Positions 42,996 through 60,462 of a stretch of DNA of 64,000 nt are shown piece by piece. The notes beneath the pieces were generated by a model, which was not told where the DNA came from, did no database searches, and saw only the letters and a list, made by a program, of their open reading frames with translations. The position numbers and the translations under genes were made by a program. This DNA is from an uncultured Gammaproteobacteria bacterium (GTDB lineage: Bacteria > Pseudomonadota > Gammaproteobacteria > Pseudomonadales > Pseudohongiellaceae), in the NCBI GenBank assembly GCA_903837345.1, contig CAILUG010000020.1:19992-83991 (forward strand), in the 5' to 3' direction. The first letter of the stretch is position 1. Every line of letters begins with the position of its first letter.

Positions 42996-43550
42996 CTAGA
43001 TTGGCTGCTCGCGGTGATAGGCTTCATTGTTGGGACTATGGTCGCCTGCCAGCCAGCGCTTCAGTTCGGAGTGGGCTTTGGGCAATACTTCCGCATTGAT
43101 CTTGTCGACCTGCGGAGGATCTGTGCAAAATTCTATGATCATGCCGTCAGGATCGATCACATACAGTGAATTGCAGTAGCCGTGTTCGAGGATGTAATAC
43201 TTGTCTTTCGGATAATTGGCGGCCTGCACGCGGGCAAGCAACGCCAGCTGATGGGGCTTGTCCACTTTCACTGCAATGTGGCGGAAACCGGAGAGCGGCA
43301 GTTCCGGCCCGAACTGTTTCTGGTCTTCTGCATCTGCAAACTGGAAGAATGCCAGTGCACTGCCGTCTTTCAATCCGAAGAAGCAATGGCAATAGATCCT
43401 TTCCTTGCCAAACAAATCAGTCTTTTCACACCAGGTGGCCATCAGTGGCATGCCCATCATGTCTTCGTAGAATTGACGGGTTACTTCCAGGTTTTTCACC
43501 ACGTAGGCAGTGTGGTGCAGGCGCATCGGTAATTTCTGTTGGGCGTTCAT
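42996..43550 (-). CDS. VOC-family (glyoxalase/bleomycin-resistance/extradiol-dioxygenase fold) protein
   Basis: 184 aa. LHHTAYVVKNLEVTRQFY and HIAVKVD are typical VOC beta-alpha-beta-beta-beta modules with metal-ligand His/Glu positions. Confidence 0.7.
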   Translation of the reverse strand: MNAQQKLPMRLHHTAYVVKNLEVTRQFYEDMMGMPLMATWCEKTDLFGKERIYCHCFFGLKDGSALAFFQFADAEDQKQFGPELPLSGFRHIAVKVDKPHQLALLARVQAANYPKDKYYILEHGYCNSLYVIDPDGMIIEFCTDPPQVDKINAEVLPKAHSELKRWLAGDHSPNNEAYHREQPI

Positions 43551-43648: not shown

Positions 43649-45271
43649 TCAACCGTAAAGTGCCTTGCGCGAGGCCGGGAACGGATTGTTCACCACCGCC
43701 GGCTTGGCATTCATGAACATGGTGGCACGTGTGGCATCATCATAAGCAGGCCAATTCGGCAAACCGGCATGGTTGGGGTTGCCAGTGCGGGCAAAATTGG
43801 CAAATGCCGTGCTCATCCTGGTAGCCAGTTCATAGCGATCCTGGCCGGCGCCGGTCATCGACGCACATACATCGACATTGTCGAAAGCAAACGGGATATC
43901 GCAGCAGTGGTAGGCCCGCAGCTTGCCGTTCCGCGCGGTCGATTGCCAATTGAAATAATACATGTAGGCCGGGGCACCTTTCAGCGCAGCCTTGCGTGCC
44001 GCCGTCGTCAACACAGCGCTGCGGAAACTGTCTGAACCGATAATCTGGTTGAATTCCTCGTTGCTGCGCTCTCCGAACTCTTTCCTGTAGGTTGCCAGCA
44101 GGCTGGCCACACCGGCAGCATCACGATGAGTGCTCTCCATCAACAGTTTTTCCAGTGTTGCCGCATCCATCGGATCCACGGGAGTACCGGCAAAGAAATT
44201 CACTTCATGCTCAGTTGACCCCATCAGCAGCGGCACATCCCTGGAAACTGCCGGCGCATCGGGCGTAAAAGGATCACGCTTGAGATTCTTGCCATCGACT
44301 ACCGGACCCACGTTGAGGCCAGGGATCGCGTTGAAGGCGTTCAGCAACTGCTCCATCGGCAGTTCACGCAATTTGCCCACCTGGTTTTTCTGCAAACCCG
44401 ATTGCTTGAGGAAACGTTCTGCCTGGGCAGTGGCCTGTTCCGGCTTGATGCCGGTCAGCGCCGCGCTGCTCATCGCGATGGCGCGATGGAACAAGCCCTT
44501 GGCCCCTTCCATGGCCATCAAATTGCAAACTTTGCCGCCGCCTCCGGACTGTCCGAAGATGGTGACATTGCCGGCATCGCCGCCAAATGCTGCGGCGTTG
44601 TCGCGCACCCATTGCAGTACCGCAATGATGTCGAGCATGCCGGCATTCCCGGAATCCGCATACTGCTCGCCACCAAGACCTGCCAGATAAAGATGACCGA
44701 AAACGTTGAGGCGATGGTTGACTGTCACTACCACCACGTTCTGGTTCACCGACAGCCGCGAGCCGTCATAGAGCAGCCAGCCGCCGGAACCACTGGTATA
44801 GCCACCACCGTGCAGCCACACCATCACCGGACGCTTGCCCTGGTCGATGGCCGGGGTCCACACATTGATGCCCAGACAGTCCTCTCCCATCGTCTCAGCC
44901 CGATCCAGTGCGAATACTTCGGGAATGAACGGCCCGCCTAGCGGCTGCGGGCTGCGATGACCAATCTGGACAGCATCCTTCACCCCTTGCCACGGTTTTG
45001 CTGCCGCCGGCGCGGCAAAGCGCAAGGCTCCCACAGCCGGTTCGGCATAGGGCACACCGAAAAACGCACTGGAACCACCTTGCAACACCCCTCTCAACCT
45101 GCCACCAGTCGTTTTCACTTCGGCAGTCGGTTTGGCATTACGAATATCCTGGGCCCAGGCCGGGAGCATCAGGCTGCCCCCCAGCACCAGCGAGGAAGAC
45201 AGCGCGGTTTTGAGCACGCTGCGGCGGCTGTAGCCAGCTGCCTTGCTGACGGTTTTTTTTGATTTTTGCAT
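43649..45271 (-). CDS. Tat-exported type-B carboxylesterase/lipase family protein
   Basis: Twin-arginine signal SRRSVLKTALSSSLVLGG...PAWA. COesterase hallmarks: FGVPYAEP, VWLHGGGY and nucleophile elbow FGQSGGG. Confidence 0.8.
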   Translation of the reverse strand: MQKSKKTVSKAAGYSRRSVLKTALSSSLVLGGSLMLPAWAQDIRNAKPTAEVKTTGGRLRGVLQGGSSAFFGVPYAEPAVGALRFAAPAAAKPWQGVKDAVQIGHRSPQPLGGPFIPEVFALDRAETMGEDCLGINVWTPAIDQGKRPVMVWLHGGGYTSGSGGWLLYDGSRLSVNQNVVVVTVNHRLNVFGHLYLAGLGGEQYADSGNAGMLDIIAVLQWVRDNAAAFGGDAGNVTIFGQSGGGGKVCNLMAMEGAKGLFHRAIAMSSAALTGIKPEQATAQAERFLKQSGLQKNQVGKLRELPMEQLLNAFNAIPGLNVGPVVDGKNLKRDPFTPDAPAVSRDVPLLMGSTEHEVNFFAGTPVDPMDAATLEKLLMESTHRDAAGVASLLATYRKEFGERSNEEFNQIIGSDSFRSAVLTTAARKAALKGAPAYMYYFNWQSTARNGKLRAYHCCDIPFAFDNVDVCASMTGAGQDRYELATRMSTAFANFARTGNPNHAGLPNWPAYDDATRATMFMNAKPAVVNNPFPASRKALYG

Positions 45272-45435
45272 GTGACTGGCTCCCCTCTACTATGTTGTGG
45301 CCCGATGATAATCCAACTACCGCCAGTGCAGAACACGCGTCGGACCATCCTGCAGGCGTCAACCTGGCATAGATGGCGCCAAATGGCCCGGTTTCGTGAT
45401 ATAAGGCCGCCCGCGTTTTGCCGGATGTTTGTCCC

Positions 45436-46146
45436 ATGCCCAACAAACCCTTTGTTTTTCTGCTGCCCGGCATGTTGTGTGATGCTGAAGTGTGGCGTGA
45501 GCAGATTGCGGTTTTGCAGTCGAATCATGAATTGTGCATCCCGGTTTTCCGTGGCTTTGATTCCTTTGAAGCCATGGCACAGCACGTGCTCTCGCTTGCC
45601 CCCGGGCGTTTCTCGGTAGTTGCCCACTCCATGGGGGGCCGGGTTGCCATGGAGCTGATACGGCTGGCTCCTGACCGTATCGATCATTTTATTGTGATGG
45701 ACATGGGCGTGCATCCGGTTACCCCCCAGGAAACCGCGCGCAACCGGCAACTGCTGGAACTGGCTGCCGAAGGTGGCCTGCAGGCGGTAGCCGAGAGCTG
45801 GATTCCCTTCATGATCCACCCTGACCGCCATCATGATGAAGCATTGAAACAGTCTATACGCTCAATGGTGTTGCGCAACGACATCAATGATCTGTGCGGA
45901 CAATTGCAGGCTGCACAGGATCGGGCTGACCAGTCACAGTATTTGCCACACATCACTCACAGGGTCGGCATCATCTGCGGCGACAGTGACAACTGGAATC
46001 CGCCTGAGCTGCATAAAGGCATGCATGAAGCACTGGTCAATTCACAACTGGCCATCATCCCTGCTTGCGGCCACATGGCGCCGATGGAACAACCGGCTGC
46101 AGTAAACCAGCTGTTATTGCAGTGGCTGCAACAAGACAAGGTCTGA
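45436..46146 (+). CDS. Alpha/beta hydrolase, cytoplasmic
   Basis: Nucleophile elbow AHSMGG and a C-terminal GHMAPMEQP (catalytic His region). No signal peptide. Confidence 0.75.
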   Translation: MPNKPFVFLLPGMLCDAEVWREQIAVLQSNHELCIPVFRGFDSFEAMAQHVLSLAPGRFSVVAHSMGGRVAMELIRLAPDRIDHFIVMDMGVHPVTPQETARNRQLLELAAEGGLQAVAESWIPFMIHPDRHHDEALKQSIRSMVLRNDINDLCGQLQAAQDRADQSQYLPHITHRVGIICGDSDNWNPPELHKGMHEALVNSQLAIIPACGHMAPMEQPAAVNQLLLQWLQQDKV

Positions 46147-46201: not shown

Positions 46202-46993
46202 TCAGGGGACGATGTTGCTGCTGCGGTCGACCGAACTACTGCCGGTACCCACCATCAATTCGACAGCGTAATTGGCCTGCTGGCAAACGTACTCAAACAA
46301 TTCTTCGCCCTGGTTCCAGCGCAGCTTGAAACCGCCATCAAAGGTTTTGGTGTAAGCACCCGGGTCATCAATGGTGATGCGGTAATCAACAGTATTCTTG
46401 TCAGTGCGATTGAAGCGTTCAATGGTGTGCAACATGCTGGTATGCGGCATGCCGCGGCGATCCATCCAGAATTCTTCGTTGTAACCTGCAGTATCCACCA
46501 CCAGCGTGTTGCCCTCCCAGTGGCCAACTGAATGACCGTAGTTGGTCGGCTGCCAGTCAGCAGGATGGGCACGCCCATCCATGTAAATGGTACGGAAGGT
46601 ATGTGGACCACCGATATCAAAAATATAAATCTGTTTCAGGTCCGTCATTTCCAGGAATTCCACTCCGTAGGGAGTCAGGAACTCCCTGGCTGCGCCGGAA
46701 GCCTTGCAACGGGTATGCGGCTCCAGCTCCTTGGTCTGGCGATAGTCAAACACTGCCTTGGACCAGGGCTGGAACGGGATGGAGGCATAAGGTGTGATTG
46801 GTTCCAGGATGCCGAACACCGGGGTCCATACGCCTTTGTCTGCAGCATTGGCTCCGCCCAGCACAACGCGTCCTTGTGCGTTGACAGGCGCCGGCCCGGC
46901 AGGCGGTGCCTGTCGGCCCGGCGGTTGTGCAACCACGGTGCTGGCAATGGCTAATGCAAGCACAGCAATTGTTGCATGTAACGGTTTCATCAT
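46202..46993 (-). CDS. Secreted protein of unknown function (domain X; paralog of the C-terminal two-thirds of the 47511-48623 product)
   Basis: Signal peptide MMKPLHATIAVLALAIASTVVA-QP and SD GAGG 6 nt upstream. It shares motifs with the neighbouring fusion protein: QPW, HxxC, IYMDGR, GxWxGxxLVVxTxGxNExFWM, PHTS, ERF, IDDxGAYT and a C-terminal Cys. Confidence 0.7.
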   Translation of the reverse strand: MMKPLHATIAVLALAIASTVVAQPPGRQAPPAGPAPVNAQGRVVLGGANAADKGVWTPVFGILEPITPYASIPFQPWSKAVFDYRQTKELEPHTRCKASGAAREFLTPYGVEFLEMTDLKQIYIFDIGGPHTFRTIYMDGRAHPADWQPTNYGHSVGHWEGNTLVVDTAGYNEEFWMDRRGMPHTSMLHTIERFNRTDKNTVDYRITIDDPGAYTKTFDGGFKLRWNQGEELFEYVCQQANYAVELMVGTGSSSVDRSSNIVP

Positions 46994-47042: not shown

Positions 47043-47483
47043 TTACTGCTTTTCTTTGCCGCGCTCTTCCAGCTGGCTGGAACCGGCATCAAGCGTCTGG
47101 CCCGGCTGCCCACCGGTGGCCGACAGCGTTACGCTTTTGGCATTTACCCGGGTCGTGCCATTGCGGGCCAGGAAACCGTCTACAGTGATCTTGGTACCCA
47201 GCGCCAGCGACTCACGACGCCAGCCACGACGCTGCAGCAAATGTGGCGGGCCCAGTTCGGCGCCCCAGGTGGCATTCTGGCCGGTGGCAGGATCCTTCAC
47301 ATTCAGGTAGATCCAGACATGGGGGTTGGTCCACTCGACTTTGGTAACGATGCCTTCAAGTTTGATGGTTTTGTCTGCATCAAACTCGGCAGCAAACGAG
47401 TGGTGGGCTGAAGCAGTGCCGGTCATGGACAATCCAAGAGCGGTTACCAGCAGGCCTGCGATGATTTTTGACTTCATGGACAT
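47043..47483 (-). CDS. Small secreted DUF6152-like protein
   Basis: Signal peptide ending TASA. The mature protein starts HHSFAAEFD...GIVTKVEWTNPHVWIYLNV, a pattern I recall for the uncharacterised DUF6152 family. The start is at 47483 or 47477 (GAGGAGA upstream). Confidence 0.7.
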   Translation of the reverse strand: MSMKSKIIAGLLVTALGLSMTGTASAHHSFAAEFDADKTIKLEGIVTKVEWTNPHVWIYLNVKDPATGQNATWGAELGPPHLLQRRGWRRESLALGTKITVDGFLARNGTTRVNAKSVTLSATGGQPGQTLDAGSSQLEERGKEKQ

Positions 47484-47510: not shown

Positions 47511-48623
47511 TCAGGGACGGTTGTCCTGGCAGAAATGGATCGGAACTTCCTGGTCTGGCACCCACTGCATGGTCCAGCTGGCGGTCCACGGACGGGTATA
47601 AGCTCCGCGATCGTCGATCGAAACCTGATACTGCAGTGTATTCATATCAGGCCTCGCAAAACGTTCTGTCAAAACCAGAGAGCTGGTGTGCGGCAAGCCG
47701 CCATTGCTCATCCAGAAATCTTCATTGAAGCCTTTGGTGGTGACCAGCAAGGCATCACCATCCCATTTGCCAATGGCACGGCCATAATAAAGCGGATTGT
47801 CATCATCCCCGGTGACACTGCCGACTTTCTCCCTGCCATCCATGTAGATGATGCGGTAATTGTGATTGCCGCTGCCCATCAGGATGAACACGCGTTGATT
47901 GACCTTGTCCTCGACAAATTTGATCCCCAGATCCGACTGGTACTCGCGCGGTCCGCCTGGGGGTTTGCAGTGCAGGAACATCGGGTCATCACGCAAATCC
48001 CGTTGCTGGCGTTTTTTGTACAAGGCCAGCGCCCATGGTTGCAGTGGTGCAACTTTGGCGGCATCGGCCAGATCAGCCAATTGCCCGTATTTATCCATTT
48101 TTACTTTCACGCCATCTTCGACCAGTGCGTAGCTGCTGGGGAAACCCCAATAACCGGCAGCACTGCCGAACATCACCTTGCCATCGGCGCCGCGTGGAGC
48201 CGGTTCTTTTTTGGCAGGAACGGCAGGATGCAGATCCTTGAGCGCGAACAGAGTGGTACTGCCTTTGGAAACCGATTCGGACCAGAGCTGACGCGAACCA
48301 TCGCGGGCCCTGATGCCTTTGACAGTAAGTGTGTCGCCGGGTTTGACACTGGTACTGCTCCAGCCGCTGCCTTTAAGCAGCAACGGGCTTTCCAGTTCAA
48401 CCGCCCAATTGGCCACGGCTGTCCCGGTTTTCACATTCAGGAAAACATGTACATGCGGATTTTTCCAATCGACATTGGTAACGACGCCGGTGATCGACAT
48501 TTCAGTGGCCTTGTCGAATTTGGCCTGGACAGGATGGTGCGCCAGCGCCGGAGCGCTCGACCAACCAAGCACAGCACTGGTAATGGCTGCGGCTAAAAGG
48601 GATTTCAATCTTGGATTCTGCAT
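47511..48623 (-). CDS. Secreted fusion protein: DUF6152-like N-terminal domain plus domain X
   Basis: The start is set at the ATG at 48623 (AGGTG 5 nt upstream). The signal peptide ends PALA. The mature N-terminus HHPVQAKFD...VVTNVDWKNPHVHVFLNV parallels the 47043 product, and the C-terminal two-thirds parallels the 46202 product. Confidence 0.7.
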   Translation of the reverse strand: MQNPRLKSLLAAAITSAVLGWSSAPALAHHPVQAKFDKATEMSITGVVTNVDWKNPHVHVFLNVKTGTAVANWAVELESPLLLKGSGWSSTSVKPGDTLTVKGIRARDGSRQLWSESVSKGSTTLFALKDLHPAVPAKKEPAPRGADGKVMFGSAAGYWGFPSSYALVEDGVKVKMDKYGQLADLADAAKVAPLQPWALALYKKRQQRDLRDDPMFLHCKPPGGPREYQSDLGIKFVEDKVNQRVFILMGSGNHNYRIIYMDGREKVGSVTGDDDNPLYYGRAIGKWDGDALLVTTKGFNEDFWMSNGGLPHTSSLVLTERFARPDMNTLQYQVSIDDRGAYTRPWTASWTMQWVPDQEVPIHFCQDNRP

Positions 48624-48664
48624 ATCGACACCTGTCATTGCACGCTGGTGGTTTAAAACGCCGC

Positions 48665-49066
48665 TTACTGTCTTACGACTTCCAGCGCACCACTGCCGTT
48701 CTGGCTCTTCCAGGTGCCTACTATCGAACGCGAAGGCAATTCAAGATTTACTATCTTGCCATCCAGTGTGTAGGAAACAGGTTTGTCTTTGGCTTTGCCG
48801 TCGGCTTCGATATGAACTGTCCAGTCGGCAGGATTCAGGGTGGCGGTTTTGATGACCATGTCATCAGTGCCGGGATTGATGGTACCGCTGACTTTCTTGC
48901 CGTCCCAATCAAGCACCAGGAACAGGAAGTCACCACTGGCTTGATTGCCTTTCCATTCGCCTATCCAGGAACCCTTCAAAGGATGCCCTTCCTGGGCGCC
49001 GGCACTGACTGCAAGCAGCAGACCTGCGACCAATAAAACAGCTTTGCGAATAATATTGGACATCAT
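48665..49066 (-). CDS. Small secreted beta-rich protein of unknown function
   Basis: 133 aa with signal peptide AVLLVAGLLLAVSAGA-QE. GSWIGEWKG near the N-terminus and GTWKSQNG near the C-terminus suggest a small barrel. It is the first gene of the four-gene operon. Confidence 0.6.
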   Translation of the reverse strand: MMSNIIRKAVLLVAGLLLAVSAGAQEGHPLKGSWIGEWKGNQASGDFLFLVLDWDGKKVSGTINPGTDDMVIKTATLNPADWTVHIEADGKAKDKPVSYTLDGKIVNLELPSRSIVGTWKSQNGSGALEVVRQ

Positions 49067-49173: not shown

Positions 49174-49194
49174 AACTTTGTATCAAGCAAAGTT
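49174..49194. promoter_or_regulatory. Inverted repeat, candidate operator upstream of the four-gene secreted-protein operon
   Basis: AACTTTG-tatcaag-CAAAGTT has perfect 7-bp arms and lies about 110-130 nt upstream of the 49066 start codon, in an AT-rich promoter-like region. Confidence 0.3.
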
Positions 49195-49310: not shown

Positions 49311-49338
49311 AAAAAAGGGGGAAGGCTGCCCTTCCCCC
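49311..49338 (-). terminator. Rho-independent terminator of the 1010-aa TonB-dependent receptor gene
   Basis: On the minus strand: GGGGGAAGG-gcag-CCTTCCCCC followed by TTTTTT, 30 nt after the stop codon. Confidence 0.75.
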
Positions 49339-49368: not shown

Positions 49369-52300
49369 TCAGAAGTTCACATCCAGACTCAGCTGGAACC
49401 GGCGTCCGAACACGTCGTAGTTGTAATCAACAACCTGGCCAGCAGTCGATGGAATGATCGGCTGATCCCGGTTGAACAAGTTACTGATGCCGAAGCTGAC
49501 CTTGTAGTTCTTGTCAGCCCATTTGTCACCATAGGACAGGTTCAGGTTGGTGACTGCCTGGGAAGCAATACGGTTATGGTCAACGTCAATACCTTCGATC
49601 CAGGTGTTGTTGAGCAGGGTATGACCCACGTATCTCTCGAAAATACCGACCCCGAATTTGCCAACCTGGTAGTTGGCAGAAACTGTAGCCGTATATTTAG
49701 GACGATCCTGGCCATTGGCTGCATCAACAACAGTGCCGTTGAACGAAGTTGTGGAGTTCTCGCTGAGGTAACCCACGAGGGCTTTCACAGTCAAATGCTC
49801 GTCCAGATCAGCCACCCAGTTCGGCAGGAAGCTGTACTGAACTTCCAGGTCGGTGCCACGGGTTTGTGCTTTGCCGATGTTCTGATACTCATCCAGGACG
49901 CGGGTGATGACATTGGTAGTCGGATCACGCGAGATCAGCGCACACTGGCCTGCATCCCCGGCAAAGCAGTCATCTGCAATACGCTGGGCTCCGAAACGAG
50001 CCAATGCGCTGGCGATGTTGATTTGGTACCAATCCACGGAGAGCTGCACGCCTTCAACCCACGATGCAAAAGTGGGCTGATAAACCAGACCCGTCGTCAC
50101 CGTAGTAGCTTGTTCGTTATGCAGGTTAGGGTTCGGGCTGGCCAATATTGTCAACGAAGCGTTGGTCACGTTGGTACCGTTGGCTGTCGTTGCTTTGTCA
50201 ACAACGGAGCCACCTCCAGTTGCCGTCAAATAACGTTCGGCGAAGGTCGGTTCACGCACGTCGCGCGAACGTGTGTAGCGCCAGCGGAGATCCTTCATCA
50301 ACTGGGCATCCAGACCGAATTTCCAGCTGGGCGTACGACCGAAGTTGGAAAAATCCGCGCTGCGATAGGCCAGATCCGAAGTCAAGGTTTGTCCACTCTC
50401 CAGTTTCAGAACCGGAATGTTCACCTCGGCAAACTCCTCGGACACATGATCTTTGCTGCCACCAACACCGATGGCGGAGAACGGGTTCAAGGAACGGTTA
50501 CCTGCGCTGGCAAAGCCAGTGGAGATACCCCGGATACCATCAGCCGGATCGTTCAAAACACCACGTTCGCCATAGCTTGGGTTGTTGACCTGATTGAAAT
50601 CTTCCTTGCGCCAGGTAGCACCTACTGCCAGTGAAACAGGGCCAGCGCCCCAACCTTTGTAGATCTCACCCGTCAGCAAGCCTTCAGCGTAACTCTGGTT
50701 CAGTATGCGCGACTGGATTTTCTGCTCCAGGGTCATCCAGTTATCTGCCGCCACGTTGGAATTACCGGCACCCAGCACGTTGAAGGGTATGCAAGTTGAC
50801 GGATCGACCGGACCAATCGGCGAGGTGACAGTTACACCGTCAGGAGTGATCGGGCTCGGCAACTTCTTGCCTGCCACGAAGGCAGCCAGCGAGGCCGCGC
50901 TCGGATTGACCTTGGTGATGTTACAGATGGTCTTGCCCGAGGTCGGGTCGGTCACCGCATCCATACTCAGGAAGAACAAGTCGATACGGGGTACACCCTC
51001 CAGACCGGTAGCAACCTTTGAACGACCACGCTGGAAGTGGCCTGACAAGTCCCAGTTGTCGTTGATCTTGTAGTCAAAACCCAGGGTGCCGGATGCCAAT
51101 TGGCCAAGACTGGTATCAGTACGATTGCTGTACGGATCCACATAGCCTGGGGAATTGATAACACCCGTTTTGCTCATCGTAAACGAGGTGATGTTGGCCG
51201 CAGTCATTGCATCCTTGACCGACTGTGGCAGGTACGGGTTGGTGTTGAATACAGTGAAGGCATAGGTCGCGCCGGCAATGGCCATGCTGGCACGCTGACC
51301 AGAAAGGTAGGACCCGGTGCGCCCCATAATCAGCTGGGCAGTCACGTTGAGCTGGTCGTTCACATCGTATTTCGCACCCAGGAACATGGAGCGCTGATCT
51401 ACTTCGTTGCCACGAACGCCCAAGTTGTTGCTGTTGGAAGCAACATACTGGTTGTATTCATTACCGCCGCTCTGGTTCAGCGTCGCGCCAGAACCGGAAA
51501 CTGAGCTGTATTGGCCGTAGCTATACGGGCGAACACTTTTGCCATCTTCGGCAAAGGTATAGCCCTTCAGGCTGAAGTTGGAGGGGCCAAGAATCAGGCC
51601 AGTTGGCGACGACTGGTTGCCGAAAACATAGGGAGCCCAGATACGGACGGGATTGGTGGCAGCAGTGCCGTTGTAGTTCGGGTTGCGGACCAGGCCATAG
51701 TTTTTCCAGTTGGAGGCACTTGCATCAGCATCGATCTGGTCAATGTAACGGGCTTGAAGACTGCCGATGATGTGCAGCTTGTTGTCCATGAAGGCTTTGC
51801 CGCCAGCAAGCGAGAAACTGTAGTTTTCACCAGTTCCCAGCTCGGAGATGCCGGAGGAAACAGAGCCTTTGAAACCTTCAAAATTGCGATCAACTACAAA
51901 GTTGACCACACCTGCCACTGCGTCTGAACCGTAAGCTGCAGAGGCGCCGCCGGTGATCACATCAACCCGCTTCAGAAGAGCAGTCGGGAAATTGTCGATG
52001 TTGACGCTGTTGTTGGCATCCGCCGGAACGATACGCGAGCCGTCCAGCAGCACGAGGGTACGGTTCTGGCCCATGCCGCGCAGGTTCAGATAACTGCCGC
52101 CAGCCTGGGTGCTGATGGCACCGAAAGTGCGCTGTGCGGTTACGGTTGAAAAGAATTGCGGCAACGTCGCCAGTTCATCTGCGATTGTGGCTCCCGGTTT
52201 GGCGTTGGTCAGTTCATCAGTGGTAATGGCAGTCACCGGAGTCGGTGTAACCATGCCGGTCTGATTACGGATACGGGTACCGGTAATCTGGATCTCTTCG

Positions 52301-52401
52301 ATGTTTGACGTCGCGCTCTGGGCGTATACGCCCGTGACAAAAGCAGCTGTTACGGCTGTAACCAGCAGTTTCTGTCTGAAATTTACAGAATTATTCCGCA
52401 T
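49369..52401 (-). CDS. TonB-dependent outer-membrane receptor (large, about 1000 aa class)
   Basis: Signal peptide; a plug region with IEEIQITGTRI (TonB-box-like) and NLRGMGQNRTLVLLDGSR; a long beta-barrel; terminal aromatic residue (…LSLDVNF). GAGGAG SD. Confidence 0.92.
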   Translation of the reverse strand: MRNNSVNFRQKLLVTAVTAAFVTGVYAQSATSNIEEIQITGTRIRNQTGMVTPTPVTAITTDELTNAKPGATIADELATLPQFFSTVTAQRTFGAISTQAGGSYLNLRGMGQNRTLVLLDGSRIVPADANNSVNIDNFPTALLKRVDVITGGASAAYGSDAVAGVVNFVVDRNFEGFKGSVSSGISELGTGENYSFSLAGGKAFMDNKLHIIGSLQARYIDQIDADASASNWKNYGLVRNPNYNGTAATNPVRIWAPYVFGNQSSPTGLILGPSNFSLKGYTFAEDGKSVRPYSYGQYSSVSGSGATLNQSGGNEYNQYVASNSNNLGVRGNEVDQRSMFLGAKYDVNDQLNVTAQLIMGRTGSYLSGQRASMAIAGATYAFTVFNTNPYLPQSVKDAMTAANITSFTMSKTGVINSPGYVDPYSNRTDTSLGQLASGTLGFDYKINDNWDLSGHFQRGRSKVATGLEGVPRIDLFFLSMDAVTDPTSGKTICNITKVNPSAASLAAFVAGKKLPSPITPDGVTVTSPIGPVDPSTCIPFNVLGAGNSNVAADNWMTLEQKIQSRILNQSYAEGLLTGEIYKGWGAGPVSLAVGATWRKEDFNQVNNPSYGERGVLNDPADGIRGISTGFASAGNRSLNPFSAIGVGGSKDHVSEEFAEVNIPVLKLESGQTLTSDLAYRSADFSNFGRTPSWKFGLDAQLMKDLRWRYTRSRDVREPTFAERYLTATGGGSVVDKATTANGTNVTNASLTILASPNPNLHNEQATTVTTGLVYQPTFASWVEGVQLSVDWYQINIASALARFGAQRIADDCFAGDAGQCALISRDPTTNVITRVLDEYQNIGKAQTRGTDLEVQYSFLPNWVADLDEHLTVKALVGYLSENSTTSFNGTVVDAANGQDRPKYTATVSANYQVGKFGVGIFERYVGHTLLNNTWIEGIDVDHNRIASQAVTNLNLSYGDKWADKNYKVSFGISNLFNRDQPIIPSTAGQVVDYNYDVFGRRFQLSLDVNF

Positions 52402-52804: not shown

Positions 52805-55291
52805 TCAGAACTTGCGTTCTACCGACAACGACGCAGTGCGCGGCATGCCAGGCACACCGGTTACCACGCCGAGCGAGGTTGTTGCATCGCTAACAGACTG
52901 GAAGTAGTACTTGTCGAACAGGTTTTGGACTTCGAGTGCCAACTTCCACTTGCCGCCCTTGTCGGAGTAGGCGATGCGGGCATTGGTCAGGAATCGACCA
53001 TCTATCGCGCCCCAGGTGGTGTTTTCGGCGTTCGTGTACAACTTGCCTTGATAAGAACCGTCCAGGCGGAAGCTGACTACCCCTGAGTTGGTCTTGTAGT
53101 CGTACTGACCACCTAACGAATACGCCGTCGTCGGCGTATACGGCGCAATGCCGCCCGCCGGGATGCTCGGCGACATGGTCAGGAAACCACCCGTGGTCGG
53201 AGACGTATAACTGAAGTTCAGGTAGCTGATGCTGGCTTCCAACGAGAATCCATCGAACGGATAGATCGTGGCTTCAAGCTCGGCGCCCTTCACGTCGGCT
53301 GCACCGATGTTGTCAGGCCGTAAGCACGGAAACGGCAGAGACGATTCCGGGCACACGGTCTTGGTGAGAATGATGTCATTGTACTTGTTCAGGAACACCG
53401 CACCGTTCAGGCGCATGGTGCGGTCAAACAAGTCGGCCTTGAAGCCTGCCTCATAAGTTTTGAGGGTTTCCGGATTGAACGGCAGACGCTGGTCAGCTAC
53501 GAATGGACGTGGATTGACCCCGCCGCCCTTGAAACCGGTAGAGTACGAGGCATAGGCCAGGAGTTCCTTGCTAAAGCGATAGTCAGTGACGAGGCGCCAA
53601 TCCGTGCGGTTGCCACTGAAACTGCCGGTAACACCGTAGATACCCGCAAGTATGCAGTTAGGATATGCCACGACCGAACCGCCCGCCGGATTGGCGAAGC
53701 ACAGCGCCGGATTCGGAATCGAGCCGTCGGGGTTGGAGCGGTAATAGGTATAGTCCTTCGCGTCCTTGGTGTACCGCACGCCAGCGGTGACGCTCCATGC
53801 ATCCGTAGGATGTATCGTCGCTGTGCCGAACATTGCCTTGGTGGTGCTGGGCGTGGTGTCGGGGCCGTGCAGGAAGTCGATCGTGGGACCCACGTAGTTC
53901 AGATCGACGCGGGCGGTATAGGTGCCCTTTTGTTTGAGGTAGTAGGCGCCTACAGTACCTTCAATGAAACCACTTTCAGACTTCATGTTGAGCCGGACTT
54001 CCGAAGTGAACGCATGGTGATTCAGTTCGTTGTCGAGCTGCGATTCTGGCAACGGAGTGGCGTCCTGATCCTGCCCGAACTTCGAGTTGTACTCGCGATA
54101 CGAACCGATATAGACAAACTCCATGTTTTTATTGAGGTGGTAGTCCAACTCACCATGAACACCCGAGCCCTCGAAAAGAGTCTGCGGTACGGCGTAATAG
54201 GGCTTGGCCGGTGCCTGGGCGGTCGGCTTCATGCCATCGAGGAAGTTCGAATAGCTGACGAAACCCGCATCCCAACCATTAAGATTGCCGCCGGTATCGC
54301 AGCTATAGCGGCCAGCTGGAACGAAGATACAACTCATGTTCACCGCCTGGCCGTTCTTGCCCACCAGCCAAGGATTCCCGGACGAGTTCGAAGCGCCAAC
54401 CGATTTGGGATCGAAGACGGCGCCGGGCGCGCCAGCAGCGATCAGCACAGTCGGGATCGCTTCCGATCGCTCATGGGTAAAGTCGGTCGAAAGGTTGATC
54501 TCAAGATCGTCGTTGGGCGTGTAGCGCAGAGCCGCACGAATGGCCTGGACGTTCTGGCCACCCATGGTCGTGTAATCAGAATTGCCGTTGCCGCGCGAGT
54601 TGGTCACAGGCACGTTTGAGTTGGGATGGGACTGGCCATAGTCGAGCATGCCGACATAGCCATCGCTGCTGCGGCTCATGCCCGAAACGCGCAAGGCCAG
54701 ATTGTCGGTAAGCTTGAGATCGACCATCCCGCGCAGGTTCATTGCGTTGAACGAACCGTAAGATACGCGCAGCGAACCGGAGTCATCACCCAAGGGCTTG
54801 GCGCTGAACAGTTTGATCGCGCCGCCGATCGCATTCTTGCCCGCCAGAGTGCCTTGGGGGCCGCGCAGGATTTCAACGCGATCCAGGTCGATCAGATCGA
54901 GCAGCGAGCTCGACAACGTCGGGATGTAGACATCGTCGACATAGACGCCGACACCCGGATCAAGCGCATAGTTGAAGTCGGTCTGGCCGACGCCGCGGAT
55001 GTAGGCGATCAGGCCTGAACCACCGTTCTGCGGCTGTGGTCGCAGCGACACGTTCGGTGCCTGCGCTGCGATCTGTGTGATACTGGTCTGGCCACGCGCA
55101 TCAAGCATCTCGGCGTTGACAGCGGTTATCGCAATTGGCGTGTCCTGCAGGTTCTGCGCCCGGAACTGGGCGGTAACCACGATCTCCTCAAGAGTTCCCG
55201 CTTTGTCCGCATTCTGCGCAAAACTGGAACCAGCCATCGTGATGGTGCCCAGCGCTACCGCTGTCACCAAAGGTCTCCTGGATAATCTCAT
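52805..55291 (-). CDS. TonB-dependent outer-membrane receptor (about 800 aa class)
   Basis: Signal peptide; TLEEIVVTAQ TonB-box-like segment; plug motifs (LRGPQGTLAGKNAIGGAI); barrel; terminal …SVERKF. GGGGGA SD. Confidence 0.92.
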   Translation of the reverse strand: MRLSRRPLVTAVALGTITMAGSSFAQNADKAGTLEEIVVTAQFRAQNLQDTPIAITAVNAEMLDARGQTSITQIAAQAPNVSLRPQPQNGGSGLIAYIRGVGQTDFNYALDPGVGVYVDDVYIPTLSSSLLDLIDLDRVEILRGPQGTLAGKNAIGGAIKLFSAKPLGDDSGSLRVSYGSFNAMNLRGMVDLKLTDNLALRVSGMSRSSDGYVGMLDYGQSHPNSNVPVTNSRGNGNSDYTTMGGQNVQAIRAALRYTPNDDLEINLSTDFTHERSEAIPTVLIAAGAPGAVFDPKSVGASNSSGNPWLVGKNGQAVNMSCIFVPAGRYSCDTGGNLNGWDAGFVSYSNFLDGMKPTAQAPAKPYYAVPQTLFEGSGVHGELDYHLNKNMEFVYIGSYREYNSKFGQDQDATPLPESQLDNELNHHAFTSEVRLNMKSESGFIEGTVGAYYLKQKGTYTARVDLNYVGPTIDFLHGPDTTPSTTKAMFGTATIHPTDAWSVTAGVRYTKDAKDYTYYRSNPDGSIPNPALCFANPAGGSVVAYPNCILAGIYGVTGSFSGNRTDWRLVTDYRFSKELLAYASYSTGFKGGGVNPRPFVADQRLPFNPETLKTYEAGFKADLFDRTMRLNGAVFLNKYNDIILTKTVCPESSLPFPCLRPDNIGAADVKGAELEATIYPFDGFSLEASISYLNFSYTSPTTGGFLTMSPSIPAGGIAPYTPTTAYSLGGQYDYKTNSGVVSFRLDGSYQGKLYTNAENTTWGAIDGRFLTNARIAYSDKGGKWKLALEVQNLFDKYYFQSVSDATTSLGVVTGVPGMPRTASLSVERKF

Positions 55292-55535
55292 TAATCCCCC
55301 ATAGTTTTAGTTGTGTACAAGATTGAGTCATACAGATATCGCTTTTAATGGCGAATCTTAATTTAATAGTACACCAAAACTCCGAAATAACCACCCAATG
55401 CAAGGGTATTCGCCCTCAAATGTGCACGTCCAACCGCGTCCTTGCAATTGGTCCTTTTTACTGGTTACTTGTGCAATACGGCTTGCACGATAGTAAACAA
55501 ACATCATATTTTTCAAAAAATTGCGTAATTTTCTT

Positions 55536-56510
55536 ATGAAAATCCACAAAATCATCCTTTCTTTGTTCGCCTCCATCCTTTTGGGCGTATTTGCACAGTT
55601 GCAGAGCGCCAGCGCCCAGACCATGCCACCCTCGCCAGCCCTGCCCGACTGTGACCGCAATTGCCTGAACGGGATTGCTGAAAACGTCTTGGCAGCACTG
55701 GTTGCCCATGACCCCAAACGGGTTGCCTGGGCTGACTCAGTCAAGTTCACAGAGAACAATGTACCGCTGCCAATAGGCGATGGCATCTGGGGCACAATTA
55801 CCGGCCTTGGCACCTATAAACTCTATGTCGCAGATGAAAAGTCCGGCGAAGTCGGGTTCTTTGGCCAGGTTCTGGAACCAGGATTCCCATCCCTGATGGC
55901 CATGCGCCTCAAGGTGGTCCACAAAAAGGTCAGTGAAGCAGAGATGGTAGTGCTGCGCATGATCAATGAACCCAAAGGCATCGTCTGGCCCGAGCCGGTG
56001 CTGGAGAACAAGCCCGTCTTTACTGAAACAGTACCCGCTGGCAAACGCCGTGAACGGGAACGACTCATCTCCATCGCCAATGGCTATTTCGATACCCTGC
56101 AACTCAACGATGGCACCCTCTTCACCGAGTTTGCCAGGGATTGTGACCGGGTAGAGAACGGCACCAAGACCACCCACAACTCCAAAGTGGACTTCACTTC
56201 AGTAGGAGCGCTTGGCTGTGAGGAACAATTCAGGCAGGGCAATTACCGCTACGATGACAGATTGCGTGCCAGGCGTTTTCCGCTGGTGGATGAAGACCGC
56301 GGCCTGGTGCTTGCTGCTGCCTTTATTGATCATTCCGGTGTGCTGGGTGAATACACACTTACCGACGGACGCGTGATTAAATCGCCGATTCGCTATCCAC
56401 ATTCTTTCTATCTGCTGGAACTGTTCAAAATCGAGGATGGAAAAATCCGGCAGATTGAATCCGTGTTTGTGACCGTGCCCTATGGCATGGGCTCACCGTG
56501 GCTGCCCTGA
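55536..56510 (+). CDS. Secreted protein of unknown function (paralog of the truncated gene at 63679)
   Basis: Signal peptide MKIHKIILSLFASILLGVFAQLQSASA. It shares DCDRxCL...FxENxVxxPxGxGxWGTI with the 63679 product. I recognise no known family. Confidence 0.65.
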   Translation: MKIHKIILSLFASILLGVFAQLQSASAQTMPPSPALPDCDRNCLNGIAENVLAALVAHDPKRVAWADSVKFTENNVPLPIGDGIWGTITGLGTYKLYVADEKSGEVGFFGQVLEPGFPSLMAMRLKVVHKKVSEAEMVVLRMINEPKGIVWPEPVLENKPVFTETVPAGKRRERERLISIANGYFDTLQLNDGTLFTEFARDCDRVENGTKTTHNSKVDFTSVGALGCEEQFRQGNYRYDDRLRARRFPLVDEDRGLVLAAAFIDHSGVLGEYTLTDGRVIKSPIRYPHSFYLLELFKIEDGKIRQIESVFVTVPYGMGSPWLP

Positions 56511-56511
56511 G

Positions 56512-57405
56512 TTACCTGGTCAGCCAGGCCACCAGCAAACGGATGTCGGTCGCGTCCAGCCTTCCAGCGAAGGACGGCATCTGGCCAGTGCGGCCTTTGG
56601 CGATGCTCAGCTCCACGTCTGCCTGACTGCCGCCGTACAACCAGATATTGTCATTGAGCCGCGGCGCACCCAGCAACTGGTTGCCGCTGCCATCAGCACC
56701 GTGGCACGCGATGCAAAATTGCATGAACACGGCATGTCCCGGCAAGTCATCTGCTTGTGGCGTGCCAAGTGCGCGCACATAGCTGGCCACTTGTTTGACC
56801 TTCTCCTCACCCAGCACACTCAGCCAGGGAATCATCACCGCATTACGACCAGCAGTGATGGTTTGGGTAATTTGTTCGGGCGTACTGCCCCATAACCAGT
56901 CACTGTCACGCAAATTCGGGAACAGGTTATGCTGCCCTTTCGCATCAGCGCCATGGCAGGCAGCACAGTTGTCGGCAAACAGACGTGCGGCACTCGACAT
57001 GGCTACAGTGTCTTGTGCAAGAGTGGCATAGGGTGTTTCAGCCAAGGCATGCCGCGCCGGGTCATGCACAGTCGCGAACTCGGCATGATGTTGTTCATAT
57101 TGGCTTTGCTGGGACCAATGCAACGCACCTGCATAAGAGCCAAGGCCCGGATACAGCATCAGATACATGACACAAAACACCATCAGCGCCAGGATCAGCC
57201 AGAACCACCACAGTGGCGCCGGATTGTTGCCTTCACTGAGATCGCTGTCCCATACCGGCGCCTCAGCGGCTTCTTCATGCGGCTGTTTGCCGAAATATAT
57301 GCCGAATATCAGCATCACCAGCCCGGCGAAACCGACAATGGCAAGCCCGACTATCCAGCCGCTCCAAAAATCAGTGGGCATATCAGCCATGCTCATCTTC
57401 CTCAA
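56512..57405 (-). CDS. ccoP: cbb3-type cytochrome c oxidase subunit III (diheme)
   Basis: An N-terminal membrane helix and two CxxCH motifs (CAACH, CIACH). It is the last gene of ccoNOQP. Alternative starts lie at 57396 and 57390. Confidence 0.9.
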   Translation of the reverse strand: MRKMSMADMPTDFWSGWIVGLAIVGFAGLVMLIFGIYFGKQPHEEAAEAPVWDSDLSEGNNPAPLWWFWLILALMVFCVMYLMLYPGLGSYAGALHWSQQSQYEQHHAEFATVHDPARHALAETPYATLAQDTVAMSSAARLFADNCAACHGADAKGQHNLFPNLRDSDWLWGSTPEQITQTITAGRNAVMIPWLSVLGEEKVKQVASYVRALGTPQADDLPGHAVFMQFCIACHGADGSGNQLLGAPRLNDNIWLYGGSQADVELSIAKGRTGQMPSFAGRLDATDIRLLVAWLTR

Positions 57406-57526
57406 TCAACGGAATATTGGCACTGAAATCCAGCAACTCTTTGGATGAGCGCATAGACACCCAAACCACCAGCACCGTCATGAACAGCATGACCAGCAAA
57501 TCACCTGCAAATATGAACAAGGCCAT
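57383..57526 (-). CDS. ccoQ: cbb3-type cytochrome c oxidase subunit CcoQ
   Basis: 47-aa single-helix peptide (MALFIFAGDLLVMLFMTVLVVWV...) between ccoO and ccoP. Called mainly from position and hydrophobicity. Confidence 0.6.
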   Translation of the reverse strand: MALFIFAGDLLVMLFMTVLVVWVSMRSSKELLDFSANIPLIEEDEHG

Positions 57527-57527
57527 G

Positions 57528-58169
57528 TCAGTGTCCTCCTGCCTGGGTGGCGGCTGCGTCATAACCGGTGCCCAGCATCTGCAGGTATGCAATCAGTGCA
57601 TCGATTTCCCGCAAGCCCTGCAATGAAGCAACCGCCCCCTTGACATCATCTTCCGAATAAGGATGGCCAAGTCGCTGCAACACTCGCAGCTTGGCTTCAA
57701 TGTTGCCGGTATCGCTGGCCATCTGCGTAGCCAGCCACGGATAGGACGGCATGATGGATTCGGGTACGACACTGCGCGGATCGAGTATATGCAGCTCATG
57801 CCAGACATTGGTGTACTTGCCACCGATGCGCTGCAGGTCAGGACCTGTGCGTTTGGAGCCCCACAGGAACGGACGATCATAAACAAACTCGGCAGCTTGC
57901 GAGGCCGGGCCGTAGCGCGCCACTTCTGCCAGCAGCGGTCGAACCTGCTGCGTGTGGCATACGTGGCAACCTTCACGGATGTAAATGTCGCGTCCGGTCA
58001 ATTCGACCGGCGTATAAACCCTTACATTCACACCCGGTGTTTCCAGTGATTTCTCGAAGAGGCTGGGCAAAACTTGCACCAGTCCGCCAATCGACGACAC
58101 CAGCAGGATGCCGAAGATCAGCAGTCCGGTGTTTTCTTCCAGCTTTTTATGCAGGCCAAGAATGCTCAT
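57528..58169 (-). CDS. ccoO: cbb3-type cytochrome c oxidase subunit II (monoheme)
   Basis: From the ATG at 58169 it reads MSILGLHKKLEENTGLL... One CxxCH (CHVCH). The start overlaps the ccoN stop (ATGA). Confidence 0.92.
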   Translation of the reverse strand: MSILGLHKKLEENTGLLIFGILLVSSIGGLVQVLPSLFEKSLETPGVNVRVYTPVELTGRDIYIREGCHVCHTQQVRPLLAEVARYGPASQAAEFVYDRPFLWGSKRTGPDLQRIGGKYTNVWHELHILDPRSVVPESIMPSYPWLATQMASDTGNIEAKLRVLQRLGHPYSEDDVKGAVASLQGLREIDALIAYLQMLGTGYDAAATQAGGH

Positions 58170-59653
58170 GCCTGCGCCTCCACGCCAACCGGCTGCGCAA
58201 CACTTTTGTTGATGCGCCAACGTGCAGGCACAGGCGGGATCAGCACTTTCAATACGTTGGCGCCTTTGATCGTGCGCCACAGGTTGTAAGTCATCATCAG
58301 GGTGCCAGACCAGAAGATGGCTCCGGCAAACAACCGCAATGCGTAATACGGTTTCATGCTGCTCATCACTTCACGGAAACTGAAACTCAGCTCGCCCAGC
58401 GTATTCACGCTCAGCCATAGCAGGCCTTGCGAGATGCCTGCAGCCCACATGGCCAGGATGTAGAGCAAGGTGCCTGCCAATGCCAACACAAAATGGATAT
58501 TGGCCAGACGTGTGCTGTAGAGTTCACGACCAACCAGTCGCGGTACCAGATAATAGAAAGTACCGTAGGTCACCATCGCGTTCCAGCCAAGTGCACCCGA
58601 GTGCACATGGCCGATGGTCCAGTCCGTGAAATGGCTCACCGCATTGACACTGCGAATCGCCAGCATCGGACCTTCAAAAGTGGCGAGCCCGTAAAAGGCC
58701 AGCGACAGTACAATGAATTTCAGCGCCGGATCGCTCTTGAGTTTGGGCCAGGCCTTGCTGACCGTCATGATGCCGTTGACCATGGTTGCCCACGAAGGTG
58801 CCAGCAGCACCAGACTCATCACCATCGCCAGCGACTGCACCCACTCCGGAATCGCGCTGTAATGCAGATGATGGGGTCCAGCCCAGATGTAGCTGTAAGT
58901 GAAAGCCCAGAACGACACCACTGACAAGCGGTAGCTCCAGATCGGCTGCCCTGCATGCTTTGGCAAAAAGTAATAGAGCATGCCGAGGAAACCACCAGTC
59001 AGCAAAAACCCTACGGCATTGTGGCCATACCACCATTCAACGATTGCATCCTGCGCTCCGGCATAAAGGGAATAGGATTTGTCGATAGTAACCGGCACTT
59101 CCAGATTGTTGACGATGTGCAGCATCGCAATGACGATGATCAGGGCACCATAGAACCAGTTGGAAATATAGATGGGGCGGATGCGACGGGTGGCAATGGT
59201 GCCAAAAAACACGATCGCAAATGCGACCCACACCACGGTGATGGCAATATCGAACGGCCATTCCAGCTCGGCATATTCCTTGGTGCTGGTCCAGCCTGCC
59301 AGCAACGACAATCCGCCCAACAGCACTACCACTTGCCAGGCATAGCAGCAGAACCACGCCAGCTTCGGCATGAACAAGGGCACATGGGAAGTGCGCTGCA
59401 CACTGTAGAAAGCCGTGCCCATCAGCGCCGAGACGCCGAACCCGAATATGATGCCGTTGGTATGCACAGGCCTGATGCGGCCGAACGAGAGCCAGAACTG
59501 CCCGAAATCGAGTGTGGGCCACACGAATTCGGCAGCCAGCCACAAACCCACTGCCATCGCCAACACTGCCCACAGCATCGAGAACTGCACCAACCGCATG
59601 ACCACCTTGTCATGGTAATACTCCGCTTCACCCAGCATGCCGTTCCCCTTCAT
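58166..59653 (-). CDS. ccoN: cbb3-type cytochrome c oxidase subunit I
   Basis: About 490-aa polytopic heme-copper oxidase with conserved His ligands (PVHTNG, HHLHYS, IGHVHSGALGW). Confidence 0.93.
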   Translation of the reverse strand: MKGNGMLGEAEYYHDKVVMRLVQFSMLWAVLAMAVGLWLAAEFVWPTLDFGQFWLSFGRIRPVHTNGIIFGFGVSALMGTAFYSVQRTSHVPLFMPKLAWFCCYAWQVVVLLGGLSLLAGWTSTKEYAELEWPFDIAITVVWVAFAIVFFGTIATRRIRPIYISNWFYGALIIVIAMLHIVNNLEVPVTIDKSYSLYAGAQDAIVEWWYGHNAVGFLLTGGFLGMLYYFLPKHAGQPIWSYRLSVVSFWAFTYSYIWAGPHHLHYSAIPEWVQSLAMVMSLVLLAPSWATMVNGIMTVSKAWPKLKSDPALKFIVLSLAFYGLATFEGPMLAIRSVNAVSHFTDWTIGHVHSGALGWNAMVTYGTFYYLVPRLVGRELYSTRLANIHFVLALAGTLLYILAMWAAGISQGLLWLSVNTLGELSFSFREVMSSMKPYYALRLFAGAIFWSGTLMMTYNLWRTIKGANVLKVLIPPVPARWRINKSVAQPVGVEAQA

Positions 59654-59656
59654 GAT

Positions 59657-60262: not shown

Positions 60263-60319
60263 GACATTTACGATACCAGGGTAACTGTTGCAGTCTAACC
60301 CGAACCCCGTCCAGCCGCC

Positions 60320-60333
60320 TTGACAGGAATCAA
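60320..60333. promoter_or_regulatory. FNR/Anr-type box
   Basis: TTGAC-AGGA-ATCAA matches 9 of 10 positions of TTGAT-N4-ATCAA. On the minus strand a TAGACT -10 hexamer (60297-60292) puts the box centre at about -41.5, the class II geometry. Confidence 0.5.
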
Positions 60334-60462
60334 TCAAGCTCTGGTCATGACCAATATCAGTCGATTAGAGGGCAATGCCAATCAGGCTTTCAGCTCATGG
60401 TCACTCCATCGAAATATCCAGTATCATCAGCCCCCTTCCCGGGGAATCAGAACACCAACAAC

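Follow-up and report, generated by a model that had tools for sequence, protein, structure and literature searches.

A conserved periplasmic gene cassette carries an OB-fold domain and an uncatalogued barrel domain as a unit in fused and split forms, with a putative histidine-brace-like metal site

Why would a bacterium keep a gene that fuses two domains directly beside two genes that encode the same domains separately? The question is raised by a locus in the genome of an uncultured gammaproteobacterium of the Pseudohongiellaceae (GenBank assembly GCA_903837345.1, contig CAILUG010000020.1, positions 19,992 to 83,991; this stretch of 64,000 nucleotides is called the window here, and coordinates count from its first letter). 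Gene A of this locus encodes a protein with an N-terminal domain (N) and a C-terminal domain (X), the next two genes, B and C, encode N and X one by one, and a fourth gene, S, precedes them. We found that S, A, B and C form a conserved four-gene cassette of periplasmic proteins, in which an OB-fold (oligonucleotide/oligosaccharide-binding fold) domain and a new barrel domain exist as a unit in fused and split paralogous forms. A three-histidine motif of N, beginning at the predicted mature N-terminus, suggests metal binding.

Gene A joins two domains that genes B and C encode separately

A preliminary description of the locus had read three open reading frames (ORFs) as a Rosetta-stone arrangement, in which one gene fuses two domains that the following two encode in the same order. 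The three ORFs lie on the same (minus) strand at the coordinates it gave, and the order of the domains was right. The cassette genes and the parts of A are as follows.

48665..49066, minus strand: gene S, first gene of the cassette, a 133-residue exported protein (ORF list)
47511..48623, minus strand: gene A, fused N-X protein of 370 residues (ORF, BLASTP, Pfam, structure model)
47043..47483, minus strand: gene B, stand-alone N domain (DUF6152) of 146 residues (ORF, BLASTP, Pfam)
46202..46993, minus strand: gene C, stand-alone X domain with its own signal peptide, 263 residues (ORF, BLASTP)
48540..48623, minus strand: signal peptide of A, residues 1-28, ending ALA (read from the sequence)
48264..48539, minus strand: N domain of A, residues 29-120, DUF6152 with a predicted OB-fold (Pfam, AlphaFold2, Foldseek)
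48204..48263, minus strand: interdomain linker of A, residues 121-140 (alignments, model confidence)
47514..48203, minus strand: X domain of A, residues 141-370 (BLASTP, conservation; no Pfam family or PDB sequence match)

By BLASTP, residues 6-123 of A matched residues 3-123 of B at 39% identity (E=9e-23) and residues 141-366 of A matched residues 34-238 of C at 35% identity (E=2e-46); these similarities are far beyond chance, and every motif pair that had been quoted as shared was found within the two alignments. The Pfam family DUF6152 (PF19649) matched residues 23-111 of A (78.8 bits, E=3e-22) and residues 19-111 of B (100.9 bits, E=4e-29), both well above its gathering threshold of 27 bits. 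Its model accounts for the N domain of A and all of B but covers only the first ~110 residues of A, and neither Pfam nor NCBIfam holds a family for the C-terminal 230 residues of A, for C or for S. DUF6152 itself has no described function or structure, and a literature search on it found no relevant paper. In the alignments the linker of A corresponds to the C-terminal tail of B together with the Pro-rich mature N-terminus of C. Searching with A returned more than 2,600 database clusters, the best 120 of which were nearly all full-length (~350-398 residues, 57-88% identity), indicating that the fused ORF is not a frameshift artefact. Fused homologues go by the name 'DUF6152 family protein' at NCBI and JGI.

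The cassette is conserved across two phyla

On the minus strand S, A, B and C lie head to tail with intergenic gaps of 41, 27 and 49 nt, and signal peptides can be read from the sequence of all four proteins. The start of A at 48623 agrees with gene calls on identical contigs and in homologues; an in-frame ATG at 48638 would add five residues. Given that a terminator-like hairpin follows the upstream TonB-dependent receptor gene and that the gene downstream of C is convergent, we concluded that S-A-B-C is a transcription unit of its own. Two elements lie upstream of S.

49321..49338, minus strand: terminator-like hairpin 3' of the upstream TonB-dependent receptor gene (sequence)
49175..49193, minus strand: perfect palindrome ACTTTG-N7-CAAAGT within the 302-nt region upstream of S

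The palindrome, ~110 nt upstream of the start codon of S, is near-identical in one of the closest relatives (L006) and weaker in two others (L010 and L012), and it may be an operator or promoter element for a putative regulator.

We fetched 80 loci from species-representative genomes and scanned all their six-frame ORFs, using hidden Markov models to detect N and X and an iterative search to detect S. All loci derive from metagenome-assembled genomes (MAGs), and ~62 were evaluable after removal of duplicate contigs. The order S-NX-N-X on one strand was found in 56 of these ~62, sometimes with an extra N or X; three of the exceptions had no stand-alone N and in the other three no X was detected. 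Independent precomputed gene calls gave the same four genes on three further long contigs. According to the MAG labels the carriers are Gammaproteobacteria (Pseudohongiellaceae, Rariloculaceae and "Pseudomonadales") and Acidobacteriota (Terriglobia, Bryobacteraceae and Vicinamibacterales), and fused and split forms are thus kept side by side across two phyla. Seven cassette-bearing records (L018, L019, L043, L046, L056, L072 and L082) bear the names Klebsiella pneumoniae, Enterobacteriaceae, Bordetella or Bifidobacteriaceae. Gene content and similarity to lake and soil Gammaproteobacteria make these names implausible, and the bins are probably mislabelled. Loci L009 (5994-8384) and L011 (2089-4479) have the order S-NX-X with no stand-alone N, and their fused protein has lost the histidine motif described below (A/QP...NPR).

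Fused and split forms are old paralogues and point to an N-X complex

Members of one class (A, B or C) share 54-65% identity on average, versus 38% between the domains of A and B or C, and each class forms a single clade in neighbour-joining trees. For X, the A type and the C type are sister clades, and both are nested among N and X sequences that come from split pairs. These trees and identities indicate that A and B/C are ancient, non-redundant paralogues and not a recent duplicate; the simplest history would be that a split N/X pair was duplicated and that fusion followed in one copy. This paralogy, gene S and the conserved histidine triad go beyond the preliminary description. In both trees a second lineage of fused N-X proteins (L005:10592-11668 and L036:13200-14315) stands well apart from the A type, indicating that N and X were fused at least twice.

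Split pairs occur in both orders. Novosphingobium humi carries X followed by N, Croceibacterium atlanticum carries N-N-X followed by a TonB-dependent receptor, and Sphingobium sp. TomTYG65 and Novosphingobium sp. KACC 22771 both carry X-N-X-N. Many of these N/X gene pairs have 4-bp stop/start overlaps, which are typical of co-translated subunits. In 55 diverse X representatives no Pfam domain besides DUF6152 recurred. Where two proteins stand alone in some genomes or loci but are joined in others, a functional and often physical interaction is predicted, and the Rosetta-stone reading of N and X is supported here by the conserved cassette, at least two independent fusions, split pairs in both orders, the gene overlaps, the lack of any other recurrent partner and the ordered linker in the model of A (below). 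From this we infer that N and X are in contact also in the split pair B + C. As in Rosetta-stone pairs in general, the same two domains are fused in some proteins and encoded by separate, co-occurring genes elsewhere; here, however, both forms are fixed side by side in one operon as ancient paralogues, which argues for a division of labour and not for alternative solutions in different genomes. Such a neighbourhood of fused and split copies speaks for an N-X complex more directly than genomic evidence usually does, and as a natural experiment it lets one ask why both forms are retained.

A third architecture of the N/X superfamily consists of XX proteins of 532-560 residues with two tandem X domains, encoded on the minus strand at L015:5798-7393, L020:3886-5493, L021:5616-7295 and L025:2007-3788. 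Each XX gene is preceded by its own stand-alone N gene and is transcribed divergently just upstream of S.

The N domain is a predicted OB-fold whose predicted mature form starts with His-His

The AlphaFold2 (AF2) model of A has a mean predicted local distance difference test score (pLDDT) of 82.5 and a predicted template modelling score (pTM) of 0.77. Its N domain is modelled with strands at residues 36-53, 58-66, 69-76, 98-106 and 112-120 and a helix at 80-85 (block-mean pLDDT 85-95); the predicted order b1-b2-b3-helix-b4-b5 has the five strands, and the helix between strands 3 and 4, of an OB-fold. Foldseek results for the full model were dominated by the OB domain, with matches over ~100 residues to the anticodon-binding OB domain of lysyl-tRNA synthetases (probability 1.0, E 6e-4 to 7e-3). 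The interdomain linker is ordered in the model (block-mean pLDDT 76-92, or 76-89 for residues 121-140), and this together with the pTM of 0.77 argues for a packed two-domain structure of A.

The hydrophobic signal peptides of A and B both end in AxA, and the next two residues are His-His; the mature N-terminus is thus predicted to be His1. A third histidine lies in an NPH loop, which follows a near-invariant Trp (DW-x-NPH), and there is no Met among the invariant residues of N. The codons concerned are as follows.

48534-48539, minus strand: His29-His30 of A, within the N domain
48453-48455, minus strand: His57 of A (NPH motif), within the N domain
47400-47405, minus strand: His-His at the mature N-terminus of B, after a signal peptide of residues 1-26
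47319-47321, minus strand: NPH His of B

We counted the histidines in 291 distinct N domains collected from the loci and from database hits. His-His and the NPH histidine occurred together in 272 of the 291, 18 had neither, one had the NPH His only and none had His-His only, a covariation that is inflated by shared ancestry and contains only ~4-5 independent loss events. The residue before His-His was A, G or S in 272/272 domains. All of the stand-alone N domains (98/98) kept the triad, as did distant Sphingomonad DUF6152 proteins (A/HHSFAMFD...NPH). The 19 fused proteins that lack the triad show at least four replacement sets (QP/R, ER/Y, QR/Y and QR/Q), and one of them is from Bryobacteraceae (Acidobacteriota), the others including gammaproteobacterial ones, indicating that the losses were repeated events.

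X is an uncatalogued barrel domain

The AF2 model of C (pLDDT 78.7, pTM 0.76) consists of a helical N-terminal segment of ~70 residues followed by eight to nine consecutive strands. A Foldseek search of the PDB with this model gave a best E of 0.19; the top matches were calycin-type barrels (Tp0751 lipocalin, UnaG, NanoLuc and avidins) of the lipocalin, fatty-acid-binding protein (FABP) and avidin kinds, with target-normalised TM scores of 0.4-0.5, query-normalised TM of at most 0.25 and no E below 0.1. X is predicted to be a ~230-residue up-and-down beta-barrel that is weakly calycin-like. The eight to nine consecutive antiparallel strands predicted for it recall calycins such as the bacterial lipocalin Blc, FABPs and avidins, from which it differs in the helical segment, an invariant Cys pair and motifs of its own (NEDFW, GLPHT and a C-terminal CQxN). 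Many Trp, Arg and Asp residues are also invariant. Searches of PDB sequences with A and C singly and with two alignment profiles returned nothing significant, and X is an uncatalogued barrel domain, with neither a Pfam model nor a solved structure. The invariant residues singled out are listed below.

47967-47969, minus strand: C219 in the X domain of A
47688-47690, minus strand: H312 in the X domain of A
47529-47531, minus strand: C365 in the X domain of A
46202..46993, minus strand: Cys96, His184 and Cys237 in gene C (conservation)

The two Cys of domain X, which the preliminary description had picked out as conserved and suited to a periplasmic disulfide, are invariant (C219/C365 in A, C96/C237 in C). 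Since the pair is invariant and the proteins carry signal peptides for export, such a disulfide is plausible.

Among 1.84 billion representatives the X profile matched 13,775 clusters (at 50% identity) at E<=1e-3 and 6,922 at E<=1e-10. Most are X-only proteins of ~260-300 residues, a minority of ~375 residues are NX proteins and some of ~450-530 residues have two X domains; all of these clusters are named "hypothetical protein". A definition of X and of its obligate partner DUF6152 would give names to thousands of exported proteins from soil and lake bacteria that are abundant and for the most part uncultured.

Protein S has an almost invariant mature N-terminus

In nearly all loci S precedes the fused gene, and it has 875 homologues, all 'hypothetical' and without Pfam domains. 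Its mature N-terminus, QEGHPLKGSW in the window and Q-E-G-H/Y/F-P-L-K-G-S-W in general, is almost invariant across phyla; further motifs are INPGTDN and LELPxRxIxGTW, and the C-terminal RQ is near-invariant. The GxW near the mature N-terminus and the invariant C-terminal Arg resemble the calycin signature. The idea that S diverged from N or X was rejected, since hhalign related it to neither (probability <5%). The mature N-terminus is thus under strong constraint in S, A and B, three of the four proteins of the cassette.

A putative histidine-brace-like metal site

The histidine brace is defined by an N-terminal His that is unmasked by signal-peptide cleavage, together with a second His, and binds one Cu ion in a T-shaped N3 geometry (PMC10952591). 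We propose a brace-like site in N because its cleavage would likewise unmask an N-terminal His that is accompanied by further histidines. On our reading S-A-B-C is an operon that stands by itself and encodes four Sec-exported (periplasmic) proteins, which are made up of three kinds of small beta-barrel module: S, a barrel-type protein of ~110 residues; N, an OB-fold in which signal-peptide cleavage would expose His-His as the first two residues; and X. N and X act as one two-domain unit, of which the cassette has two copies, one covalent (A) and one divided between genes B and C. A transition metal, most likely Cu(II), would be bound in a histidine-brace-like site by His1, through its free amino group and imidazole, by His2 and by the NPH histidine, the X barrel would supply a partner or ligand-binding surface, and the cassette would act as a periplasmic metal-handling or metal-dependent binding complex. 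A metal site on the mature N-terminal His-His is moderately supported by the position and joint retention of the triad. That a metal is bound, which metal it is and what the cassette does in the cell we infer from these patterns, and the account as a whole, from the paired N-X unit to a metal-handling or binding cassette, we favour tentatively, as a possibility that falls somewhat short of probable. If the triad is a metal site, histidine-brace chemistry would be extended to a new fold; experiments are feasible, since cultured Novosphingobium, Sphingobium and Croceibacterium have split N/X pairs that keep the triad.

Histidine-brace copper proteins (CopC/PcoC, YcnI/DUF1775, the LPMOs AA9-AA11, PmoF1 and X325/Bim1) are likewise exported and have a cleavage-exposed N-terminal His plus a further His, but N is a predicted OB barrel whose motif is His-His plus one distal His, it has no sequence similarity to them and its metal site is putative; none of the cassette proteins matched the Pfam or NCBIfam models of the CopC, LPMO or YcnI families. 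The CopC-CopD pair exists both split and fused (YcnJ), which parallels N-X. CusF, a periplasmic OB-fold protein, binds Cu(I)/Ag(I) with a His-Met-Met site and has a conserved Trp beside the ligand loop. N resembles the CusF/SilF metallochaperones in being a small periplasmic protein with a predicted OB-fold and a near-invariant Trp before the NPH loop (DW-x-NPH), but in place of the His plus two Met of a CusF-type site it has no conserved Met and an N-terminal His-His; sequence searches detected no relationship between the two, and CusF has no X-type partner. Among calycin-like proteins, ZinT/YodA is periplasmic and binds metal, and ZinT is also found fused in AdcA. Literature searches combining histidine brace with OB-fold, or N-terminal histidine with copper and TonB-dependent, found no relevant paper.

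Several observations weigh against a metal site of this kind. In the AF2 model residues 19-30 of A have pLDDT <50, and the placement of His29/30 is not confident. The known histidine-brace proteins have immunoglobulin-like or cupredoxin-like folds, not an OB-fold. The clade of L009 and L011 has no triad in A and no gene B; the triad is dispensable in A there, which argues that the X/S part functions without it. The shared ancestry behind the triad count counts here too. Links to metal homeostasis are almost absent, CopC/CopD following the cassette in one of 88 loci (L088), and an Rfam search of the region upstream of the cassette found no riboswitch, metal-responsive or other, and no known RNA element. 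The surroundings are heterogeneous: 122 immediate neighbour proteins included glyoxalase/VOC (10), alpha/beta-hydrolase (8), malonyl-CoA decarboxylase (7) and receptor Plug domain (5) families, and no neighbour family was common to both phyla.

The cassette could instead be a metal-independent periplasmic system that binds or shuttles an organic, possibly hydrophobic or anionic, substrate through S, the calycin-like X and the OB-fold N, the substrate entering by outer-membrane receptors and passing to catabolic enzymes or inner-membrane transporters; the triad would be a ligand- or protein-contact motif. The best, weak, structural matches of X are ligand-binding calycins, S has the calycin-like GxW and C-terminal Arg mentioned above, and X is rich in invariant Trp, Arg and Asp. 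The window and several loci have TonB-dependent receptor genes next to the cassette, genes for esterases, alpha/beta-hydrolases, VOC proteins, P450s and acyl-CoA enzymes recur nearby, and the X-N-X-N genes of Sphingobium are clustered with luciferase-like monooxygenases, TauD, an SsuA-like binding protein and a TonB-dependent receptor. However, receptors are only 5 of the 122 immediate neighbours, which we judged, with no formal test made, to be near chance in receptor-rich genomes; in the window the receptor gene ends in a terminator of its own ahead of the cassette; the missing common neighbour family tells against this idea as well; and the Foldseek E-values for X all exceed 0.1. It is hard to explain without a metal why the N-terminal His-His is kept and lost together with the third His, and we consider a ligand shuttle a serious but rather unlikely alternative. 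That B + C are a decaying or recently split duplicate of A, an arrangement without functional information, might be read from the same domain order and the immediate adjacency of the genes. Both genes are intact, though, each with its own signal peptide, with only 35-39% identity to A; their orthologues stand at 53-62% mean identity across two phyla and form clades of their own, and B has its triad in 98/98 cases even where A has lost it. We regard this explanation as refuted by the conservation of the cassette, the class identities, the neighbour-joining clades and the triad of the stand-alone N domains, and its chance of being right as negligible.

The same histidine-brace-like motif could instead belong to a new copper-dependent redox enzyme, in which the brace of N activates O2 or H2O2 on a substrate held in the X barrel, with electrons supplied, in paralogous N-X modules, by a pair of adjacent DUF6644 membrane proteins with one invariant His each. 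The dense invariant polar residues of X (Arg, Glu, His, Asp and Tyr) look more like an active site than a passive carrier, DUF6644 genes stand beside extra N-X or N-XX modules in 10 loci and code for an invariant His in the first predicted helix, and the Sphingobium cluster contains a peroxiredoxin and monooxygenases. But neither DUF6644 nor another redox partner is found near the main S-A-B-C cassette, some lineages without the triad in A nonetheless keep all X motifs, and neither sequence nor fold assigns the proteins to a catalytic family. Several brace proteins, CopC, X325 and YcnI, are moreover thought to be transport proteins, not enzymes (PMC10952591), and an enzyme of this kind seems improbable to us. 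A broader proposal would make DUF6152 a new OB-fold class of histidine brace, an obligate pair with X that together with S forms a new periplasmic copper-dependent enzyme or relay, with paralogous modules wired to DUF6644, widespread in soil and freshwater Gammaproteobacteria, Acidobacteriota and Sphingomonadales; we think this unlikely and offer it as speculation.

Genomic neighbourhood

Co-localisation of the cassette with a TonB-dependent receptor was not conserved. The idea that the cassette is a dedicated partner of the upstream receptors was discarded on account of the terminator after the receptor gene and the 5/122 receptors among the neighbours. The two receptor genes upstream in the window (49369-52401 and 52805-55291, minus strand; 1010 and 828 residues) each end in a terminator-like hairpin, and neither product reached an NCBIfam substrate-specific cutoff. 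Downstream, an alpha/beta-hydrolase gene (45418-46146) is convergent to gene C and is followed by genes for a 540-residue carboxylesterase (43649-45271, minus strand; Pfam COesterase) with an apparent twin-arginine export signal (SRRSVLK) and for a 184-residue cytoplasmic protein of the VOC/glyoxalase family (42996-43550, minus strand). Orthologues of this VOC protein, of near-identical length (E ~1e-113 to 1e-118), lie near the cassette in 19 loci including the window, at varying positions and orientations; all 19 belong to one gammaproteobacterial clade, and a functional linkage was rejected in favour of clade synteny. One diverse X representative has a Glyoxalase match, and a phmmer search against the collected proteins did not tie it to the VOC gene of the window. 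Neither these neighbours nor the single CopC/CopD case assigns the cassette a function.

Beyond the receptors the window encodes a DUF8021-type protein (55521-56510), a cbb3-type cytochrome oxidase gene set (56512-59653, minus strand) and a 764-residue PQQ-dependent dehydrogenase with a C-terminal cytochrome c-like CxxCH motif (60397-62691). The genes from 55521 to 62691 reflect an aerobic heterotroph background, and no link between them and the cassette was found.

There is no DUF6644 gene in the window, but such genes accompany the extra paralogous modules more regularly than any of these neighbours accompany the cassette. The ten loci in which DUF6644 membrane-protein genes adjoin extra N-X or N-XX modules come from Alpha- and Gammaproteobacteria and from MAGs labelled Acidobacteriota, and four of them (L089 and L091-L093) are Sphingomonad. 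Two such genes lie next to each other in every one of these loci but L045, which has one; their positions are as follows.

L015:2847-3838, DUF6644 genes
L020:2423-3386, DUF6644 genes
L021:3778-5039, DUF6644 genes
L030:7785-8774, DUF6644 genes
L045:5472-5972, single DUF6644 gene
L053:205-1312, DUF6644 genes
L089:6137-7112, DUF6644 genes
L091:9405-10589, DUF6644 genes
L092:5845-6854, DUF6644 genes
L093:9409-10427, DUF6644 genes

The invariant His of each DUF6644 protein lies in the first predicted transmembrane segment and is joined by a C-terminal GRWI; the proteins give weak DUF2214 matches in Pfam, and hhalign against a single CopD sequence gave no match. On the plasmid pTomTYG65a of Sphingobium sp. 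TomTYG65 (L093:1-14831) the X-N-X-N genes lie inside an apparent organosulfur-scavenging cluster, which comprises two luciferase-like monooxygenases, an FAD oxidoreductase (flavoprotein) with a ferredoxin, a peroxiredoxin, an SsuA/NMT1-like binding protein, TauD and two TonB-dependent receptors.

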